57,876 nt of DNA, taken from NCBI GenBank assembly GCA_964372915.1, contig CAYJRN010000007.1, forward strand, positions 1-57,876. The letters run 5' to 3'. A program made the translations under genes and the position numbers. Source of the DNA: an uncultured Planctomycetales bacterium (GTDB lineage Bacteria; Omnitrophota; Gorgyraeia; Zapsychrales; JAHFFX01). This document shows, piece after piece, positions 32,960 to 44,561 of this stretch (position 1 is the stretch's first letter; every line of letters starts with the position of its first letter). The notes beneath the pieces are model-generated. The model made no database searches and was not told where the DNA came from. It worked only from the letters and a program-made list of their open reading frames with translations.

Positions 32960-34399
32960 ATGAAAGCGATGAAAACCATTATGAAAAATAAATTCTTTTC
33001 CAGCAAAGGACTAAGGACGGAGATGTTTATTGTTGTGGGCCTTATTTCGCTCATCATGCTGGGTTTTGCGGGCTATCTTTTTCCGGGCGTATTCTCATTT
33101 TTTGAGCGGTCTTCTTTGCCGTGGACGGTCATCATCAGCGTGCTTTTTTGGGGGATTATCTTCGTTATTCTCTGGCAGATCGTCGATCCGATCATCAAGC
33201 TCAGCCGGGAAGTGAAAAAAATTGCCAATGGAGATTTTAATCGGGAAATCGAGCTTTTTAGAGAAGATGAGATTGGGCAATTGGGAGAGGCCATCAACCG
33301 GATGACCCATCGGATCAAAGAAAATGTGGAGGAACTACAGAATTTCAGCAAAACAACCGAACAAATTAATACCGAAATCAACAAGCGGATTCTTATGCTT
33401 TCCCATATGCTGCAGATCAGCAACTTGATTGCGCAAAACGGTCCGTTCAAAGAGATTATTGACGTGGGGGTGGGCAAATGTCTCACCTCCGGGGTGATGA
33501 ATTTTGCCTGCCTTATCCTCAAAGATTCTGAAACCAGCGAGTTCCAAGTTCGGTTTATCGGCGGCGCCAGAGTCGAAGAATTGACGGAGAAAGGGGTCCA
33601 ATCGATTAAAGTCAAGGTGGGCGAAGGATTAATGGGCAAAGCCCTTCTTAAACAGGCCCCCATTGTTATTGATAAAGAAACGAACGCCAACGCCGAGATC
33701 GCGCAATTTCGGTCACTGTTTTCCGTCATCAACGCCATAATCGTTCCGGTCACGTCCAAAGGGAATGTTTATGGTTTGCTTATGGCGGGCAATGATACCA
33801 AGGATTTTGTTTTCATGAAAATGGACCACGAACTTGTGCAGGTCGTGGCCCGGCAAATCACAATCGCCAATACCAATGAACTTCTGCAAAAAGAGGTAGA
33901 GAAGCTGGAAGTGAAAGACAGGCTTACCGATCTTTTTAATCAGACCTATATACGCAGTTTTCTGAACGAAGAGATCAAGAAGGCTATGAATTTTCAGCGT
34001 CCATGTTCTTTGCTGCTTCTTACCATCGACCGTTTCGATGTGTTTCACGATACCTACGGACATATTGCGGTGGAAAATGTTCTTATCAAGATCGGATCGG
34101 TCCTTAAAGAAAACTTAAGCGCGGCGGATAAATCGGCTCGCTCCGACGATCATGAATTTGCTGTCATCTTACTGGAAAAGAATAAACGCCAATCCATCGC
34201 GGTGGCGGATTCCCTCCGAAAGAAAATCGAAGAAGTCTTTGTTCATGAAAAGGATTCCAACAAGAGGTTAACCTGCACCGGGGCCGTCACCGAGAACCCG
34301 ATTGATGGTGTCTCCGCCGATGAATTGATCGAAAAAGCACGGGAAATTCTTAAGGACGCGAAAAAGGGGGGCGGCAACCGCATTTGTTACAAGATATAA
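32960..34399 (+). CDS. HAMP-GAF-GGDEF domain protein with a degenerate active site (DDHEF)
   Basis: Two TM segments, a HAMP domain (SREVKKIANGDFNREIE), a GAF-like middle region, and a C-terminal GGDEF fold. In the GGDEF fold, GGDEF is replaced by DDHEF, TGLxNR by TDLFNQ, GD by VE, and no RxxD I-site is present. Confidence 0.75.
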   Translation: MKAMKTIMKNKFFSSKGLRTEMFIVVGLISLIMLGFAGYLFPGVFSFFERSSLPWTVIISVLFWGIIFVILWQIVDPIIKLSREVKKIANGDFNREIELFREDEIGQLGEAINRMTHRIKENVEELQNFSKTTEQINTEINKRILMLSHMLQISNLIAQNGPFKEIIDVGVGKCLTSGVMNFACLILKDSETSEFQVRFIGGARVEELTEKGVQSIKVKVGEGLMGKALLKQAPIVIDKETNANAEIAQFRSLFSVINAIIVPVTSKGNVYGLLMAGNDTKDFVFMKMDHELVQVVARQITIANTNELLQKEVEKLEVKDRLTDLFNQTYIRSFLNEEIKKAMNFQRPCSLLLLTIDRFDVFHDTYGHIAVENVLIKIGSVLKENLSAADKSARSDDHEFAVILLEKNKRQSIAVADSLRKKIEEVFVHEKDSNKRLTCTGAVTENPIDGVSADELIEKAREILKDAKKGGGNRICYKI

Positions 34400-34421: not shown

Positions 34422-34871
34422 ATGAAGCATTTTAAGAAAGCCACCAACAAACGTCTGGGAGAATTGTTGATTGAACGAGGTACCATCAATCAGGATCAAC
34501 TGGAAATGGCGCTGGCCTATCAGAAGGAAAAAGGCGGCCTTTTCGGGGAGGTTCTGGTGATCTTAAAGTTTGCATCCGAGGAAGATATTGCCCGGGCCCT
34601 CACATCCCAATACGGGTTTCCTTATCTTCCCTTGTCCAGTTATGAGGTCGACCAGGATGTCATCAATACAGTTCCCGAAAACGTCTGCCGACAATTTTGT
34701 CTTGTCCCGATCGATAAAATCGGCAAAAGCTTGACCCTGGCGATGGCCGATCCTTTGAATGTCCAAGCGGTGGAGGATGTGGAATTGATTACGGGCTGTG
34801 TCGTACAAACCTTCGTCAGCACTAGCACCGATATAAAAAATACCGTTAATAAATATTACAAGCATAAATAA
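34422..34871 (+). CDS. stand-alone T2SSE_N / MshEN-type domain protein
   Basis: 149 aa. RLGELLIERGTINQDQLEMALAYQ, then KEKGG, then LFGEVLVILKFASEEDIARALTSQ match two tandem 24-aa MshEN motifs with a 5-aa spacer. The rest resembles the GspE/PilB N-terminal domain (LTLAMADPLN). Confidence 0.8.
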   Translation: MKHFKKATNKRLGELLIERGTINQDQLEMALAYQKEKGGLFGEVLVILKFASEEDIARALTSQYGFPYLPLSSYEVDQDVINTVPENVCRQFCLVPIDKIGKSLTLAMADPLNVQAVEDVELITGCVVQTFVSTSTDIKNTVNKYYKHK

Positions 34872-38423: not shown

Positions 38424-38876
38424 ATGGCTGATAACATCGAGGAACTGCTTCTTAACAAACAACCCTTAGGTTCTATTCTTCTAGAGCGCAAGATGATCAC
38501 TCAAAAGCAGTTGGACGAGGCGCTGGTTATTCAAAAAAAAGAAGAGGGATTTTTAGGAGAGATTCTCGTCAAGCTGGGATTCCTCCTTGAACGAGACATT
38601 GTGGCGGCTTTGGTTGTACAATGTAATTTTGCCTACATTGCCGTCAATAAATACGAGATCGATCCCAAAATGATTGAATTGATTCCGATTCAAGTGGCGC
38701 GGAAGTTTCAGGTCGTTCCGCTGGATTGCGTGGGGGATGTCTTGAGTGTCGTGATGGTGAACCCTTTTATTTTTTCGATGAAGAATGAGCTGGAACGCTT
38801 GACGGGTTGCAAAATCGCCACCTTCATTGCCACGCGGACCGAAATCCATCAGGCCATTGAACGTTGGTACAATTAA
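38424..38876 (+). CDS. stand-alone T2SSE_N / MshEN-type domain protein, second copy
   Basis: 150 aa. PLGSILLERKMITQKQLDEALVIQ, then KKEEG, then FLGEILVKLGFLLERDIVAALVVQ, followed by a GspE_N-like remainder. Confidence 0.8.
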   Translation: MADNIEELLLNKQPLGSILLERKMITQKQLDEALVIQKKEEGFLGEILVKLGFLLERDIVAALVVQCNFAYIAVNKYEIDPKMIELIPIQVARKFQVVPLDCVGDVLSVVMVNPFIFSMKNELERLTGCKIATFIATRTEIHQAIERWYN

Positions 38877-38888
38877 GAGACAATAGAA

Positions 38889-40094
38889 ATGTTGACTTTC
38901 AAATATGTTGTCAAAGATCAAGATGCCCGTACTGTAACGGGAAAGATGCAGGCTGATAGTCAGGCGATCGTCATCGACGAGTTGCGCAAGCGTAAGCATA
39001 CCATTATTTCTATCGTTCAGGTCAAGGACGCTCCATTCCTCCAATGGTTGCCGCGCGGTAAAAAAGTAAAAGGGGATGACCTGGTGATTTTTATTCGTCA
39101 GTTCTCGACGATGGTGGAGGCGGGGATTCCCATCTTGGAATGCCTGGAGGCTCTGCAGGAGCAGATGACCGATCCAACCTTCCGGTCCGTCATTGGTGCG
39201 GTGAAGGAAGACATTCAACTGGGCACCAGTCTTTCGGCGACCTTCGCCAAACACCCGACCGTCTTCGACAAATTGTTTGTCAGTATGGTTAAAGTCGGCG
39301 AGACAGGCGGTGTCTTAAGTACAATCTTGGATCGCATGTCCGGTTATATGGAAAAAAGTTTAAAGCTCAAACATAAAGTGCAGTCGGCGATGATCTATCC
39401 ATCGGTGGTTGTTAGCATGGCCATTATTATCACCATTGTCCTTTTGGTCAAAGTCGTTCCGACCTTTGCCTCCATTTATACGTCTTTCGGTCGGGAATTA
39501 CCGGTGATGACGCAGCTTCTGATCAGTATCAGTAGTGGCCTTAAGACCCAATTGGTGTATTACATTGTGGGTTTGATTATTTTGGGGATCGCTGTCAATC
39601 GGATTTATCAGACAGAAAAAGGGGCCCTGGTTTTAGATAGTGCCAAACTCAAAATGCCGGTTTTCGGAGATTTGATTCGCAAAGTGGCCATTAGCCGTTT
39701 CGCGCGAACTCTCGCCACCTTAACGCAAAGCGGTGTCCCTATCTTGGAATCTCTGGATATCGTTGAGACAACCTGTGGCAATAAAGTATTGGAAGTCGTT
39801 ATTGAATCTGTGAAGAACAATGTGCGCGAAGGAGAGAGCATCGCTGGCCCATTAATCAAAAGCGGTGTTTTCCCTCCGATGGTAACGCGCATGATTTCCA
39901 TCGGGGAAAAATCGGGGCAGCTCGAGAAAATGCTCGCGAAGGTTGCCGAATTCTACGATGATCAGGTGGATACGGCCGTGGCGGGCTTAACCAGCATCAT
40001 CGAACCGCTGATTATCGGATTCTTGGGAATTGTTGTCGGTTTCATTGTCATTGCTTTGTTTTTACCGATTATCAGCATTACAACGATTTTGTAA
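38889..40094 (+). CDS. pilC: type IV pilus platform protein PilC (GspF family)
   Basis: 401 aa with a duplicated GspF domain, 3 TM segments, and EAGIPILECLE / QSGVPILESLD motifs. Confidence 0.9.
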   Translation: MLTFKYVVKDQDARTVTGKMQADSQAIVIDELRKRKHTIISIVQVKDAPFLQWLPRGKKVKGDDLVIFIRQFSTMVEAGIPILECLEALQEQMTDPTFRSVIGAVKEDIQLGTSLSATFAKHPTVFDKLFVSMVKVGETGGVLSTILDRMSGYMEKSLKLKHKVQSAMIYPSVVVSMAIIITIVLLVKVVPTFASIYTSFGRELPVMTQLLISISSGLKTQLVYYIVGLIILGIAVNRIYQTEKGALVLDSAKLKMPVFGDLIRKVAISRFARTLATLTQSGVPILESLDIVETTCGNKVLEVVIESVKNNVREGESIAGPLIKSGVFPPMVTRMISIGEKSGQLEKMLAKVAEFYDDQVDTAVAGLTSIIEPLIIGFLGIVVGFIVIALFLPIISITTIL

Positions 40095-40110: not shown

Positions 40111-41220
40111 GTGTCTAAAAATAATATTTTGAAAATGGTTTTGGCAGGATTTTTGATGGTGCTTTTGCAAGGCCGCCTTGGCGCGGAAGCGGGGGAAGGG
40201 CCCTCGAGGACGGAACATCTTTTTGCCATCTTGTCGGAGCTTCAACAAGGCGCTCAGGATTTGCTGCACGAACGGGAGGATCTCAGAGGCAAAGTTCCGG
40301 CGCTTAAAAAACAGATGGAAGAACTGCAATATGATTTAAAGGCAGCCCAAGATCGCGACGATAAGTTGAACGTGGCTATCCGGGAACTGAGTAACGAGGA
40401 AAAAAGCTTCTCTCCCGGCCATGAAAATCTGAAAGAGCGGTTGAAAGAAATTGCTTTAAAAAAGTTTCCCCTGCAGGAGATCGTGGAGCGGCACGAGCAG
40501 GAGATTAAGGAAAAGAATAATAAAAAGGAGTCGCTCAAGACACAAGAGGTATCCCTCCAAGGACAGAATGAAGGTCTTCGAAAAGATAACGAATCCTTGA
40601 GGCAGTTCACAAAAAATGTTTCCCAGCGGCTGGAGGATCTTAAAGCTATCCTCAATGACATGGATGAGAAGACGACTCCCCAGGAGCTCAGCTCAAAAGT
40701 TACCAATGTGGGTGTCGCGCGCGCGCTAAAAGATGAAACGCGTAAAAGTATCAACTTAAGCCAAGAACATCAAAGCAACCTCCAAAAACAGATTGAGTCT
40801 TGGCAACAAATTTCTCTTTCCAACACACAGAAGACGCAAGAATTTAAGTCTCAACAGGATCAGTCTTCAAGAGAGATGAGGGATTTAGAGAACAGGTTGA
40901 AAATTCTCGATGCAGAGGCCCTCCAAATTCCTCAAGAAACCGCCGCCCGGCGGGACGAAGCCCTCGGCCGGCTCAATGCCCTTAAGGAAGAAATCGATGA
41001 TCTCAAAGCGCAGCGGGCCGAGTCTGCGGGATTTGTGGACTCCGCGCGGGAGATCCTTGATAGAAAAAGGATTGTTGCCGCCCAGATTCCTCTTAGTGAG
41101 GAACAATTGCAGGAGAACGCAGAAATCTTGATGGGGGAAAACGACGCCTTGAAATTGGAATTAGAACGTCTTAAGAAAACTAAACTGATCTTGAGTGGAC
41201 AAGAAACAAAGATGGAATAA
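40111..41220 (+). CDS. secreted coiled-coil protein of unknown function
   Basis: GTG start at 40111 with a GGAGG RBS at 40100. It has a signal peptide (MVLAGFLMVLLQGRLGAEA) and then about 330 aa of E/K/Q/L-rich heptad-like sequence. Confidence 0.55.
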   Translation: MSKNNILKMVLAGFLMVLLQGRLGAEAGEGPSRTEHLFAILSELQQGAQDLLHEREDLRGKVPALKKQMEELQYDLKAAQDRDDKLNVAIRELSNEEKSFSPGHENLKERLKEIALKKFPLQEIVERHEQEIKEKNNKKESLKTQEVSLQGQNEGLRKDNESLRQFTKNVSQRLEDLKAILNDMDEKTTPQELSSKVTNVGVARALKDETRKSINLSQEHQSNLQKQIESWQQISLSNTQKTQEFKSQQDQSSREMRDLENRLKILDAEALQIPQETAARRDEALGRLNALKEEIDDLKAQRAESAGFVDSAREILDRKRIVAAQIPLSEEQLQENAEILMGENDALKLELERLKKTKLILSGQETKME

Positions 41221-41245
41221 CCTTCATTGAAGTCAGGAACCTACT

Positions 41246-41638
41246 ATGAAACCTCATAAGAGCGGTTTTACCTTGGTTGAGATTATGATCGTCGTCGCTA
41301 TCATTGCCTTGCTGGCGGCGGTCGCTCTCCCCAATCTCTTAAGATCAAAAATGCTTGCCAACGATGCGGCGGCCCAGAGTCATCTTAAAGCGCTGTCCAC
41401 TTCCTCGGAAACCTTCGCCTCCATTAATAACGGAAGTTATCCAGCCGATGTTACGTCTTTAACCGGTCTCACCCCGCCCTATATCTCTCAAGCTTTTTGC
41501 GGGGCAACCATGTCGGGGTATTCTTTTGTTTGCGCATTTCCCGTTAGTGGCTATACATTTGTCGCAACGCCGGTGACCGTGGGCAGTTCGGGGACTACAA
41601 CTTACACGATAACGACAGGCTCTATTATGACGCCTTAA
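41246..41638 (+). CDS. type IV pilin / pseudopilin (prepilin N-methylation site)
   Basis: MKPHKSG|FTLVEIMIVVAIIALLAA has a class III signal, Glu+5 and a C-terminal Cys pair. Confidence 0.85.
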   Translation: MKPHKSGFTLVEIMIVVAIIALLAAVALPNLLRSKMLANDAAAQSHLKALSTSSETFASINNGSYPADVTSLTGLTPPYISQAFCGATMSGYSFVCAFPVSGYTFVATPVTVGSSGTTTYTITTGSIMTP

Positions 41639-41658
41639 AGGGGTAGAAAGACTGCGGA

Positions 41659-41687
41659 TTGACAAGCTTTGGGAGGGATGTTATACT
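41659..41687 (+). promoter_or_regulatory. consensus sigma70-type promoter
   Basis: TTGACA-17 nt-TATACT, 21 nt after the pilin-1 stop. Confidence 0.55.
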
Positions 41688-41712
41688 TTCATCAGAATTA
41701 AGAAAAGACCTT

Positions 41713-41790
41713 GTGGAAATGGTAAACTACTCGTAAGGGTGGGGCACAAAGCTAGAGGGCCCTTTAAAAAGAATCGCAAAGGGTAGCCAG
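41713..41790 (+). ncRNA. candidate c-di-GMP-I (GEMM-I) riboswitch aptamer
   Basis: GGUAAAC-CUACUC-GUAA-GGGUGG-GGCACAAAGC parallels V. cholerae Vc2 GGCAAAC-CCAUUC-GAAA-GAGUGG-GACGCAAAGC (recalled from memory), with an apparent C-G to U-A covariation. A second helix is formed by GCUA/UAGC plus CCCUUU/AAAGGG and ends in GGGUAGC. The aptamer lies between a consensus promoter and an intrinsic terminator. Confidence 0.55.
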
Positions 41791-41816
41791 CTGCTGAAAC
41801 AAGAGAAGCGAAAGGG

Positions 41817-41854
41817 CCTATTCTACGAGCAGGAAGTCGAAGAATAGGTTTTTT
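41817..41854 (+). terminator. intrinsic terminator (candidate riboswitch expression platform)
   Basis: cctattctacga / tcgaagaatagg is a 12-bp stem with 1 mismatch and an 8-nt loop, followed by TTTTTT. Confidence 0.75.
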
Positions 41855-41912
41855 ATTGTCCGAGTTCGATGTGTGATTGTTACTTAAGAACATCAAAAAA
41901 GCGGGAAAGAAA

Positions 41913-41941
41913 TTGACAAGTAATTTGTTGATTGATAAGAT
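41913..41941 (+). promoter_or_regulatory. sigma70-like promoter within the repeated pilin leader (copy 1)
   Basis: TTGACA-17 nt-TAAGAT, about 180 nt upstream of the pilin ATG at 42122. Confidence 0.45.
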
Positions 41942-42121
41942 AAATTCGCGTTTTAAGTTATCAACGTGATGAGGAGCCGGTAAGTCACATCCCTCAAGGG
42001 CCAGAATTTTGTGAGAGGTAAGGACCGTTCTTATTCATTCGATCTTTCTTGCCTGGATTCTGGGATGAGTGAAGTAACTGGAAACGGCTTAAACCAGGAT
42101 CAAGATAAGGATGGTAATTCT

Positions 42122-42514
42122 ATGAGAAGGAATCGTAAGGGTTTCACGCTGGTGGAAATCATGATCGTTGTGGCCATCATCGCGTTGCTAGCGGCGATCG
42201 CCATACCGAACTTACTCAGGGCGAAGATTTCCGCGAATGATGCTTTGGCCAAAGGGACATTGAGATCGCTCTCAACTGCCTCGGAGACGTTTGCCACATC
42301 GAGCTCTGGTAACTACCCGGGCGCCATCACATCTTTAACCGGTGCCACACCGCCGTATATTACAACGAATTACTGCGGGGCGACCTTGTCGGGTTATACG
42401 TATGATTGCACCTTTGCTGCTGGTGGTTATACGATTGTTGCCACGCCGGTCACCGTTGGTACGTCGGGTACGACGACCTACACGATATCAACGGGCGCTG
42501 TGCTGACTCCTTAA
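42122..42514 (+). CDS. type IV pilin, duplicated paralog A
   Basis: MRRNRKG|FTLVEIMIVVAIIALLAA, with an AAGGA RBS 10 nt upstream. In-frame upstream starts (42065 ATG, 42011 GTG) would give a long leader peptide and are less likely. Confidence 0.85.
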   Translation: MRRNRKGFTLVEIMIVVAIIALLAAIAIPNLLRAKISANDALAKGTLRSLSTASETFATSSSGNYPGAITSLTGATPPYITTNYCGATLSGYTYDCTFAAGGYTIVATPVTVGTSGTTTYTISTGAVLTP

Positions 42515-42523
42515 GAGGATAGA

Positions 42524-42552
42524 TTGACAAGGTCCCGGATGCAGGTTATACC
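42524..42552 (+). promoter_or_regulatory. sigma70-like promoter
   Basis: TTGACA-17 nt-TATACC, followed by a small hairpin (cttgc-N8-gcaag, 42556-42573) and the repeated terminator. Confidence 0.45.
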
Positions 42553-42582
42553 TTTCTTGCAAGTGAAAGCAAGACATGGGGG

Positions 42583-42620
42583 CCTATTCTACGAGCAGGA
42601 AGTCGAAGAATAGGTTTTTT
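42583..42620 (+). terminator. intrinsic terminator (repeat copy 2)
   Basis: Same hairpin and T6 as 41817-41854. Confidence 0.7.
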
Positions 42621-42678
42621 ATTGTCCGAGTTCGATGTGTGATTGTTACTTAAGAACATCAAAAAAGCGGGAAAGAAA

Positions 42679-42707
42679 TTGACAAGTAATTTGTTGATTG
42701 ATAAGAT
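42679..42707 (+). promoter_or_regulatory. sigma70-like promoter within the repeated pilin leader (copy 2)
   Basis: Same TTGACA-17 nt-TAAGAT as 41913-41941. Confidence 0.45.
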
Positions 42708-42887
42708 AAATTCGCGTTTTAAGTTATCAACGTGATGAGGAGCCGGTAAGTCACATCCCTCAAGGGCCAGAATTTTGTGAGAGGTAAGGACCGTTCTTAT
42801 TCATTCGATCTTTCTTGCCTGGATTCTGGGATGAGTGAAGTAACTGGAAACGGCTTAAACCAGGATCAAGATAAGGATGGTAATTCT

Positions 42888-43280
42888 ATGAGAAGGAATC
42901 GTAAGGGTTTCACGCTGGTGGAAATCATGATCGTTGTGGCCATCATCGCGTTGCTAGCGGCGATCGCCATACCGAACTTACTCAGGGCGAAGATTTCCGC
43001 GAATGATGCTTTGGCCAAAGGGACATTGAGATCGCTCTCAACTGCCTCGGAGACGTTTGCCACATCGAGCTCTGGTAACTACCCGGGCGCCATCACATCT
43101 TTAACCGGTGCCACACCGCCGTATATTACAACGAATTACTGCGGGGCGACCTTGTCGGGTTATACGTATGATTGCACCTTTGCTGCTGGTGGTTATACGA
43201 TTGTTGCCACGCCGGTCACCGTTGGTACGTCGGGTACGACGACCTACACGATGACCACGGGTGGGACGCTGACTCCGTAA
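42888..43280 (+). CDS. type IV pilin, duplicated paralog B
   Basis: Protein identical to paralog A except for the C-terminal tail (TYTMTTGGTLTP versus TYTISTGAVLTP). Confidence 0.85.
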   Translation: MRRNRKGFTLVEIMIVVAIIALLAAIAIPNLLRAKISANDALAKGTLRSLSTASETFATSSSGNYPGAITSLTGATPPYITTNYCGATLSGYTYDCTFAAGGYTIVATPVTVGTSGTTTYTMTTGGTLTP

Positions 43281-43328
43281 TCTAAGCGTTTTTCAGTTTT
43301 TTTCAGTCCAGGAGTCTTTAAGTTTTTT

Positions 43329-43370
43329 CAAACAAAGGGGGGCCTTTTAAAAAAGGCCCCCCTTTGTTTG
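43329..43370. terminator. 20-bp perfect-stem hairpin, likely bidirectional terminator
   Basis: caaacaaaggggggcctttt aa aaaaggcccccctttgtttg, 49 nt after the pilin B stop. Confidence 0.75.
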
Positions 43371-43481
43371 AAGCGTGACAGCTAAGACCTATCAGGCGAT
43401 CTATCTAGAGAAAGAAGTAAAAATAATTATGAAACTTCCCCCCCAAAAACCGCGCAATTTTGGTACAATATTAGCTGTCTT

Positions 43482-44561
43482 ATGAATCGGTTATTGGAAA
43501 AATATTTTGCGGCTGTCAAAAATTTTATCCCTCAGAGGTCCAAAGCTTCCAGTGTCGGCATGGACATCGGTAATGATTCTGTTAAATTGATAGAGCTCAT
43601 CCGATCAGCCGATTCCTATCAACTTGTCCATTGGGGGATTGAACCCATTGAGGGAAACAGCGCCGCAGCCGCCGTCAAAAAGATCTTGGAAAAGTTTGAG
43701 ATCCAAACCAAGTCTCCGGCGACTGCTGTCTTTGGGAAAGGAACCCTCATCCGGTACATTGATTTGCCGCGGATGTCCCTTGAAGAGCTTAAAAAATCGT
43801 TTGCTTTCGAGTCGGACAAGCATTTGCCCTTCCCGCAGAACCAAATTTTTACCGACTGTTTTATTTTGGATCCTCATGGTAAAGATAAGACGATGTCGGT
43901 TCTGGTGGCAGCCTCGAAAAAGGAAATTGTCAATGAGCGGATTCAACTTCTTTCCCAACTGGGATTGCGGCCGAACACGATTAGTATCAACGCCATCGCT
44001 ATCGCCAATGTCTTTCATACATTAGGTTTGAATGGGGAGGATGCGTCCCTCGCCTCTGCGTCGCCGGAGGCTAAATCGTCGGCGGCGGCCGTCTTGGATA
44101 TGGGAGAGAATGTCAGTAACCTTATGGTCCTCAAAGGTCATTTACCTTGTTTCAATCGCGATATTTTTATCGGGGGACAGGAATTGGATAAACGTATCGC
44201 TAATGTCTTGGGCGTGAATGTTGCCGATGCAAAGAAAATCAAGTTGGATCCCAAGGATAAACAAGAGACAGTTTTAGGCGCTTGCGAATCGATTTTGAGC
44301 GGTTTGATTTCCGAAATCAGGCTTTCCTTTGATTATTTCATTACGGAAAAAAACTCACCTATCGCCAAATTGTATCTCGCCGGTGGAAATGCGAATGTGA
44401 ACGGGATCGTGAATCTTTTTGCCAAAAGCCTGGACTTGCCGGTTGAGCTTTGGAACCCGATTCTCTCTTTAAAGGTGTCACCGGGGCTTTCGATGGAAGA
44501 ACTTAATAAAAATGCGAGCCGATTAGGCGTGGCATTAGGATTAGCCCTTTATTCAGAATGA
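43482..44561 (+). CDS. pilM: type IV pilus assembly protein PilM
   Basis: Actin-like ATPase fold (GMDIGNDSVKLIEL). Sits upstream of pilNOPQ with a 4-nt overlap. Confidence 0.85.
   Translation: MNRLLEKYFAAVKNFIPQRSKASSVGMDIGNDSVKLIELIRSADSYQLVHWGIEPIEGNSAAAAVKKILEKFEIQTKSPATAVFGKGTLIRYIDLPRMSLEELKKSFAFESDKHLPFPQNQIFTDCFILDPHGKDKTMSVLVAASKKEIVNERIQLLSQLGLRPNTISINAIAIANVFHTLGLNGEDASLASASPEAKSSAAAVLDMGENVSNLMVLKGHLPCFNRDIFIGGQELDKRIANVLGVNVADAKKIKLDPKDKQETVLGACESILSGLISEIRLSFDYFITEKNSPIAKLYLAGGNANVNGIVNLFAKSLDLPVELWNPILSLKVSPGLSMEELNKNASRLGVALGLALYSE

Follow-up and report, generated by a model that had tools for sequence, protein, structure and literature searches.

What is the RNA encoded between the first two pilin genes of this locus, and what does it do to the gene behind it? 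The window (the whole stretch of DNA that was analysed, 57,876 nucleotides) comes from an uncultured Candidatus Omnitrophota bacterium, in which a riboswitch is placed 5' of a type IV pilin gene. Judged by its sequence, the element at 41659-41854 is a c-di-GMP riboswitch of class I that has a promoter and a terminator of its own. The RNA class (GEMM-I) is known, the phylum is newly documented, and the layout recurs across Omnitrophota. The element is bounded by two pilin genes:

41246-41638, forward strand: pilin 1, with an N-terminal methylation motif
42122-42514, forward strand: pilin 2, the gene downstream of the riboswitch (130 aa, prepilin leader MRRNRKG/F, Pfam N_methyl)

An earlier note on this DNA had placed a pilin gene downstream of the element, which its start codon (ATG 42122) and N_methyl domain bear out. 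Pilin 2 shares 64% identity with pilin 1 and 97% with pilin 3; the latter pair is separated by 4 substitutions among 130 residues, which are confined to the C-terminus.

The pilus cluster as a whole encodes a HAMP-GAF-GGDEF protein, two MshEN PilB-type ATPases, two small MshEN proteins, PilC, a coiled-coil protein, three pilins and PilMNOPQ. At its head, the HAMP-GAF-GGDEF protein (32960-34399) has DDHEF instead of GG(D/E)EF, and because its active-site motif reads this way it is probably catalytically inactive as a cyclase. Small stand-alone MshEN proteins (34422-34871 and 38424-38876) flank the two PilB ATPases. MshEN domains bind c-di-GMP in pilus ATPases and have a 24-residue c-di-GMP motif (PMC5013675); the first small MshEN protein carries a near-canonical version of it (RLGELLIERGTINQDQLEMALAYQ), so c-di-GMP may act on the pilus also at the protein level.

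The Rfam family RF01051 (c-di-GMP-I/GEMM-I) matches 41711-41798 on the forward strand with 59.3 bits (gathering score 35 bits; E 4.2e-9) over model positions 1-87 of 87, and is the sole Rfam family above threshold in the 57.9-kb window. The class II model (RF01786), which served as a control, gave no match at E<=10 in a permissive Rfam search of 41200-43600. The aptamer that the earlier note had proposed as a candidate GEMM-I is supported in this way by the family's own covariance model, and standard Rfam annotation would flag it. Its parts are:

41710-41803, forward strand: GEMM-I aptamer including its closing helix (RF01051, 59.3 bits; our own model R1, described below, 90.8 bits over 41708-41804)
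41710-41714 with 41799-41803, forward strand: closing (P1) helix of the aptamer, CUUGU with ACAAG, 5 bp
41722-41723 with 41746-41747, forward strand: aptamer pairs G22:C47 and U23:A46 (RF01051 alignment)
41727-41732 with 41737-41742, forward strand: first hairpin of the aptamer, with a GUAA loop at 41733-41736 (RF01051 alignment)
41750-41753 with 41789-41792 and 41757-41765 with 41779-41788, forward strand: P2 helix of the aptamer (RF01051 alignment)

In GEMM-I RNAs an AAA linker connects two hairpins, the first of which carries a GNRA tetraloop (PMC1950547); here the linker (41748-50) lies between a first hairpin at 41727-42 and a second at 41750-92. Several details of the fold as it had been described from the sequence by eye needed adjustment. 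The string quoted for 41721-41752 is present, with one C counted twice; it reads GGUAAA-CUACUC-GUAA-GGGUGG-GGCACAAAGC. The proposed compensatory change to U:A holds, in that U41723:A41746 is a paired position in the Rfam alignment and is U:A in 8/8 aligned Omnitrophota aptamers. Of the second helix, CCCUUU/AAAGGG stands and GCUA/UAGC does not, the family pairing being AGCU 41750-53 with AGCU 41789-92; A41785-G41786 is the conserved bulge. No convincing closing helix had been seen, but one is formed by CUUGU and ACAAG as listed above. The inner U:A and G:C pairs of this helix in relatives become U:G and G:U in the window, and its outer register differs among loci. The remark that a GYRA loop comes without a receptor agrees with the original GEMM description, where such tetraloops go without one (PMC1950547); first-hairpin loops in relatives are GUAA (37), GAAA (13) and GUGA (3).

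Relatives were collected by a search with the PilC protein (38889-40094), which gave 80 loci in species-representative genomes at 48-79% identity, almost all titled Candidatus Omnitrophota or Omnitrophica, or mislabelled MAGs. Among the ten closest loci, Rfam returned nine GEMM-I-clan matches in eight, and some close relatives have two aptamer copies, each before a pilin. Eight aptamers were aligned. The structure given by RNAalifold was set aside because it contained a non-family junction pairing, and the family structure was imposed instead, with 21 pairs and 99.4% of pair cells standard; slid-structure controls on the same alignment were 30-51% paired. In this small sample of closely related sequences, 3 pairs changed on both sides, a number reached in 4 of 500 shuffles. 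The alignment was then used to build a covariance model (R1), with which 55 matches were obtained in 51 sources, namely the window and 50 of the 80 Omnitrophota pilC loci; every match is on the same strand as pilC, usually 1-2 kb after it; of the 30 loci with no R1 match, 13 end <3 kb after pilC. In two aptamers (L075:12959-13126 and L014:7733-7868) the junction that follows the first hairpin contains an additional hairpin.

Recognition of c-di-GMP by the Vibrio cholerae aptamer Vc2 involves contacts at G20, A47 and C92, and the interhelical C-G pair (C44-G83) is universal in the family (PMC4744006). The corresponding positions in the window, from the RF01051 alignment, are:

41721, 41748 and 41794, forward strand: ligand-contact equivalents of G20, A47 and C92
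41745 with 41786, forward strand: equivalent of the interhelical pair C44-G83 (C41745-G41786)

This correspondence depends partly on how Vc2 numbering is mapped onto the RF01051 consensus. All these residues are conserved in the Omnitrophota aptamers (n=54): G20 in 51/54, A47 in 53/54, C92 in 52/54, C44 in 52/54 and G83 in 50/54. From RF01051 score and fold to contact residues, covariation and closing helix, the window element shows every testable feature of GEMM-I membership.

Aptamers of the 3',3'-cGAMP type (GEMM-Ib) carry A at the G20 position. This feature is absent from the window, which has G41721, and from 51 of 54 relatives, which have G. Because the window has G where the cGAMP type carries A, the predicted ligand is very probably c-di-GMP. 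It is highly improbable that the aptamer senses 3',3'-cGAMP or another dinucleotide instead. GEMM-I variants with altered specificity do exist, and one relative (L067:5450-5589) has A at the G20 position, as does the weak match L080; the former may have cGAMP-type specificity, to judge from this residue. Also in favour of another ligand, the variant family RF03167 (c-di-GMP-I-GGC) is the best-reported member of the clan in E-value mode. Its score for the window is, however, below threshold (57 bits against 59), and its consensus has G where RF01051 has the A mapped to A47, whereas A stands there in the window and in every aligned relative (CAC-A-AAGC); the window therefore belongs with the standard GEMM-I type and not the GGC variant. 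The window's own G at the G20 position and the 51/54 conservation of that residue speak against another ligand too. Several relatives' aptamers (L002, L003, L008, L009) pass the RF03167 gathering threshold yet carry A, not G, at the defining position, and automatic annotation would mislabel Omnitrophota aptamers that score above it.

The aptamer is one part of a longer transcription unit, the remaining elements of which are:

41659-41687, forward strand: promoter P1, TTGACA-17-TATACT, 11/12 consensus positions with TG before the -10, predicted start ~41694-41696
41811-41854, forward strand: intrinsic terminator and expression platform, stem 41811-24/41841-54 with an inner CGA/UCG of 3 bp, an 8-nt loop and U6 at 41849-54
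41913-41941, forward strand: promoter P2, TTGACA-17-TAAGAT, from a promoter consensus scan; second copy at 42679-42707
41949-42121, forward strand: pilin leader, the 5' UTR from P2, with blocks conserved in 26-30 loci; second copy at 42715-42887

Promoter P1 and the terminator had both been claimed from inspection of the sequence, and both were recovered: the promoter with the same hexamers and spacer, beginning 21 nt past the pilin-1 stop codon (41636-41638), and the terminator by folding of 41694-41860, with its stem and U6 run. The terminator alone folds at -15.7 kcal/mol. It was missed by a simple terminator scan with a minimum of 5 contiguous pairs, presumably because an A-A interior mismatch leaves 3 contiguous pairs next to the 8-nt loop. 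There is no terminator between the pilin-1 stop and promoter P1, and pilin-1 transcripts therefore also enter the riboswitch.

The same elements recur in order among the relatives. In most of 40 related loci, a promoter of the form TTGACA-N16-18-TATACT ends ~15-25 nt upstream of the aptamer; a hairpin with a T-run begins 28-75 nt past the aptamer in 47/54 matches; and a gene with a prepilin motif begins 169-456 nt downstream in 44 of the 46 matches that have a downstream pilin. Between the last two lies the relatives' version of P2, also near-consensus (TTGACA-N16-18-TAnAAT). In most of 40 loci the distance from the end of its -10 to the pilin ATG is 125-216 nt, usually 140-180, and its distance from the terminator varies from ~10 to >200 nt. 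The conserved module is thus promoter P1, aptamer, terminator, promoter P2, long leader and pilin, and since a promoter is conserved between terminator and pilin, the riboswitch is not simply the 5' UTR of the pilin gene.

The leader contains a hairpin with the loop GAGCCAAUAGGUUA, the block AACCGUCAUUAUNCUUA, and a helix CUGGAU...AUCCAG which, by eye, ends just before the Shine-Dalgarno sequence (AAGGAGG). It gave no Rfam family at E<=10, and RNAalifold found no consensus structure in 26 leaders because their alignment, gappy and noisy, was too gappy for it. The leader could represent a regulatory RNA not yet described, one that would sequester the ribosome-binding site.

A natural variant of the module lies directly downstream. 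A 766-bp tandem repeat (span 41814-43280) copies the terminator, P2, leader and pilin, with 41814-42113 identical to 42580-42879, and no aptamer is left in the unit that precedes pilin 3:

42524-42620, forward strand: aptamer-less unit before pilin 3, with TTGACA-17-TATACC, a 6-bp hairpin (42555-60/42569-74) and an identical terminator at 42577-42620

Alignment of the two intergenic regions indicates that the promoter of this unit has lost the last T of its -10 (TATACC), and folding that the ~100-nt aptamer is replaced by the 6-bp hairpin, which has the look of the closing helix with a loop at its end. Since both aptamers are retained in relatives that have two units, the aptamer-less unit probably arose by deletion. 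On the 3' side of pilin 3, a perfect long palindrome (AAACAAAGGGGGGCCUUUU...AAAAGGCCCCCCUUUGUUU, 43324-43368) is probably a bidirectional terminator that closes the pilin array.

How, then, would ligand binding bear on transcription? The terminator begins 8 nt past the closing helix and has no nucleotides in common with the aptamer; because none are shared, the two folds are not mutually exclusive, and in full-length folds the aptamer hairpins and the terminator coexist. This geometry argues against an ON switch, in which binding of c-di-GMP prevents the terminator. Many GEMM RNAs have been proposed to work in this way, and Geobacter pilM has been shown to do so; the original GEMM paper has terminators that overlap the second hairpin, with an ON model (PMC1950547), and high c-di-GMP induces Clostridioides difficile pilA1 through a class II riboswitch (PMC4744006). 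Nevertheless, we consider it very unlikely here, with no overlap between terminator and aptamer.

We favour, at a probability of roughly 0.6, an OFF switch of the type of Cd1 from Clostridioides difficile, in which aptamer strands and the 5' arm of the terminator form an anti-terminator (PMC9262584). Modelled in this way, the riboswitch would be transcribed both from its own promoter and by read-through from pilin 1, and would gate the entry of polymerase into the pilin-2 unit. Binding of c-di-GMP would keep the aptamer folded and let the terminator at 41811-41854 form, so that transcripts from promoter P1 and from pilin 1 alike would end at 41854, the former as an RNA of ~160 nt. Without c-di-GMP, aptamer strands would pair with the 5' arm of the terminator, and polymerase would continue across P2 and the leader to the pilin gene. 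The strands involved would be 41710-18 and 41757-65 in the window and, in most relatives, the 3' strand of the first hairpin with the junction.

Support for such pairing was sought by folding each transcript after a cut just before the 3' arm of the terminator. The element concerned is:

41811-41829, forward strand: terminator 5' arm (predicted anti-terminator), pairing with 41757-65 and 41710-18 in the minimum free energy structure of the transcript cut at the 3' arm

In the window 41757-65 pairs with 41811-19 and 41710-18 with 41821-29, for a total of -12.1 kcal/mol against -7.2 for shuffled arms. Across the cut transcripts the arm pairs mainly with the first hairpin, through its 3' strand and tetraloop, and with the junction next to it (209/574 arm nucleotides); the linker accounts for 23.5/574, and since it so rarely pairs with the arm, a three-element ON design is unsupported. 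Many relatives have a long anti-terminator helix of GUAAGGAUGGGACACA with UGUGACCUAUUCC. Over 42 distinct loci, arm pairing yields a mean gain of -5.66 kcal/mol, and shuffled arms yield -4.34 (Wilcoxon p = 0.0013); the pairing beats the shuffled mean in 30/42 loci and is no better in 12/42, and a pairing of <= -4 kcal/mol is predicted in 26/42, with a small effect relative to shuffled arms. The arm-pairing effect thus appears real but modest in these models. Its modest size, together with a narrower test that reached p ~0.06, is the reason for the probability assigned to the OFF switch.

That narrower test concerned the 3' strand of the second hairpin (AGGGUAG) as partner of the terminator arm, a candidate that was rejected: comparison of each locus's own arm with those of other loci gave only p ~0.06, and ensemble folding has the arm mainly paired with the 3' strand of the first hairpin rather than with AGGGUAG. 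The AGGGUAG pairing does covary in some loci (L013, L015, L025, L069, L052). Two further candidates were discarded. A pairing of GGGCCCUUU with AAAGGGCC fails as a general anti-terminator, since it is confined to the window and relatives do not have it. Pairing of the leader block CCAAUAGGUUA with the terminator 5' arm fits the loci whose arm is CCUAUUC, shows no covariation where arms differ, and is unavailable to the window, which has no such block.

A terminator stem of CCUAUUC/GAAUAGG (41817-41848 in the window) is kept across genera (L003, L008, L012, L016, L019, L050, L064 and others), and it resembles both the first-hairpin 5' strand (CCAUUC) and the leader block AUUAUNCUU. Pairing of the arm with aptamer strands would explain why CCUAUUC and the preceding UGUGA are kept; the anti-terminator model accounts for the threefold resemblance only in part. 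The anti-terminator partner also differs between the window and most relatives, and because the first hairpin is stable and forms first, an anti-terminator of this kind needs strand invasion. In addition, an OFF switch on the pilin looks at odds with the c-di-GMP-binding MshEN pilus ATPases encoded in the cluster.

The presence of P2 behind the terminator has its own consequences, and the riboswitch may not control pilin output in a simple additive way. Promoter P2 can make pilin mRNA that lacks the aptamer, so that the switch would modulate pilin supply rather than solely set it. Additive read-through into the pilin gene is our default among three readings. The second, transcriptional interference, is that at low c-di-GMP read-through from P1, a strong promoter, would occlude P2, and that c-di-GMP-dependent termination would free P2 and turn the pilin ON. 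We regard this as unlikely. Conservation of P2 just past the terminator in most loci would suit it, as would the position of the P2 -35 only ~10 nt past the U-run in L069, L008, L052, L001 and L025, the near-consensus P1 of nearly all loci, and the four MshEN domains of the cluster, a type of domain that binds c-di-GMP in pilus ATPases (PMC5013675); pilin would then be ON in step with the MshEN ATPases. On the other hand, spacing between terminator and P2 is anywhere from ~10 to >200 nt, and the read-through RNA itself carries the pilin coding sequence, which favours addition.

The third reading is that P1, aptamer and terminator constitute a stand-alone small RNA gene, acting as an abundant c-di-GMP buffer or sponge or in trans on the pilin leader, with a link to the pilin that is positional and does not depend on read-through. 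Such a gene would be expected to have a near-consensus promoter and a strong terminator, as here, with a further promoter behind them for the pilin; Vc2 gives c-di-GMP-stabilised small RNAs, with tfoY expressed mostly from downstream promoters (10.1101/617340), and similarity to the terminator 5' arm and to the first-hairpin 5' strand is seen in the leader block AUUAUNCUUA. We nonetheless judge it quite unlikely: complementarity between the 5' arm and the aptamer is needed by a conditional terminator and not by the plain terminator of a small RNA, and the leader likeness does not covary with the terminator where arms differ (L069, L025).

More speculatively, and in our estimation rather unlikely, the whole assembly could be a two-promoter device, consisting of a strong promoter, aptamer, conditional terminator, pilin promoter and long, structured leader that sequesters the Shine-Dalgarno sequence. 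Read-through controlled by c-di-GMP would act on the downstream promoter or the leader, by occlusion or by leader refolding, and the leader would be a second regulatory RNA, of a kind not yet described. If this were true, GEMM-I in Omnitrophota would not be a plain 5' UTR switch.

Full-text literature searches found no paper on riboswitches in Omnitrophota (incidental matches only) and none on a GEMM-I RNA directly before a pilin gene. The novelty claimed in the earlier note is accordingly narrower than it was put: the occurrence in Omnitrophota and the placement directly before a pilin stand, but the link between GEMM and pilus genes has been known since 2007, when the original family description tied it to pilM, pilO and pilQ in Geobacter (PMC1950547), and the pilin gene pilA1 of Clostridioides difficile is under c-di-GMP riboswitch control through class II (PMC4744006). 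The added interest is the two-promoter architecture, fixed across the phylum, together with an undescribed pilin leader.

Omnitrophota are uncultured and often ultra-small, and some are thought to live attached to, or to prey on, other cells, for which reason type IV pili are likely to be key organelles in this phylum. A conserved c-di-GMP riboswitch directly before a pilin gene would supply a concrete c-di-GMP receptor and output for these bacteria. Taken together with the four MshEN domains that the cluster encodes, the riboswitch points to c-di-GMP action on a single pilus machine at two levels, RNA and ATPase. The two-promoter layout and the natural aptamer-deleted copy also provide a built-in comparison for switches where the gene has its own promoter.

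Among characterised riboswitches, the window element can be set beside four. Cd1, a class I riboswitch before the flgB flagellar operon and an OFF switch, shares with it a GEMM-I aptamer, a separate terminator able to coexist with the folded aptamer, an anti-terminator of aptamer strands and terminator 5' arm (predicted in the window), and control of a surface-appendage gene. It differs in belonging to another phylum and in serving flagella rather than a type IV pilin; moreover, the window has a second promoter between terminator and gene, and its switch direction is a prediction. The GEMM-Ib riboswitch of Geobacter pilM resembles the window element in aptamer fold, transcriptional mechanism and location at a type IV pilus locus, pilMNOPQ (PMC9262584, PMC1950547). 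Unlike the window element, it has A at the selectivity position and senses 3',3'-cGAMP, its terminator overlaps the aptamer to make an ON switch (PMC9262584), and it precedes assembly genes, not a pilin. Cdi2_4, the class II riboswitch before pilA1 of Clostridioides difficile, is likewise a c-di-GMP riboswitch on a type IV pilin gene (PMC4744006), but it belongs to an unrelated aptamer class, for which the window has no RF01786 match, and is an ON switch. Vc2/tfoY of Vibrio cholerae offers a parallel in promoter layout, with a GEMM-I RNA transcribed from upstream promoters, riboswitch-independent promoters nearer the gene, and short riboswitch RNAs (10.1101/617340); there, however, the small RNAs do not come from termination, the aptamer itself contains the promoter P3, tfoY is believed to be regulated at translation, and the gene encodes a regulator and not a pilin. 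Since promoters downstream of a c-di-GMP riboswitch are known from Vc2/tfoY, and the link between GEMM-I and pili is known as well, the window element is of an already known kind.
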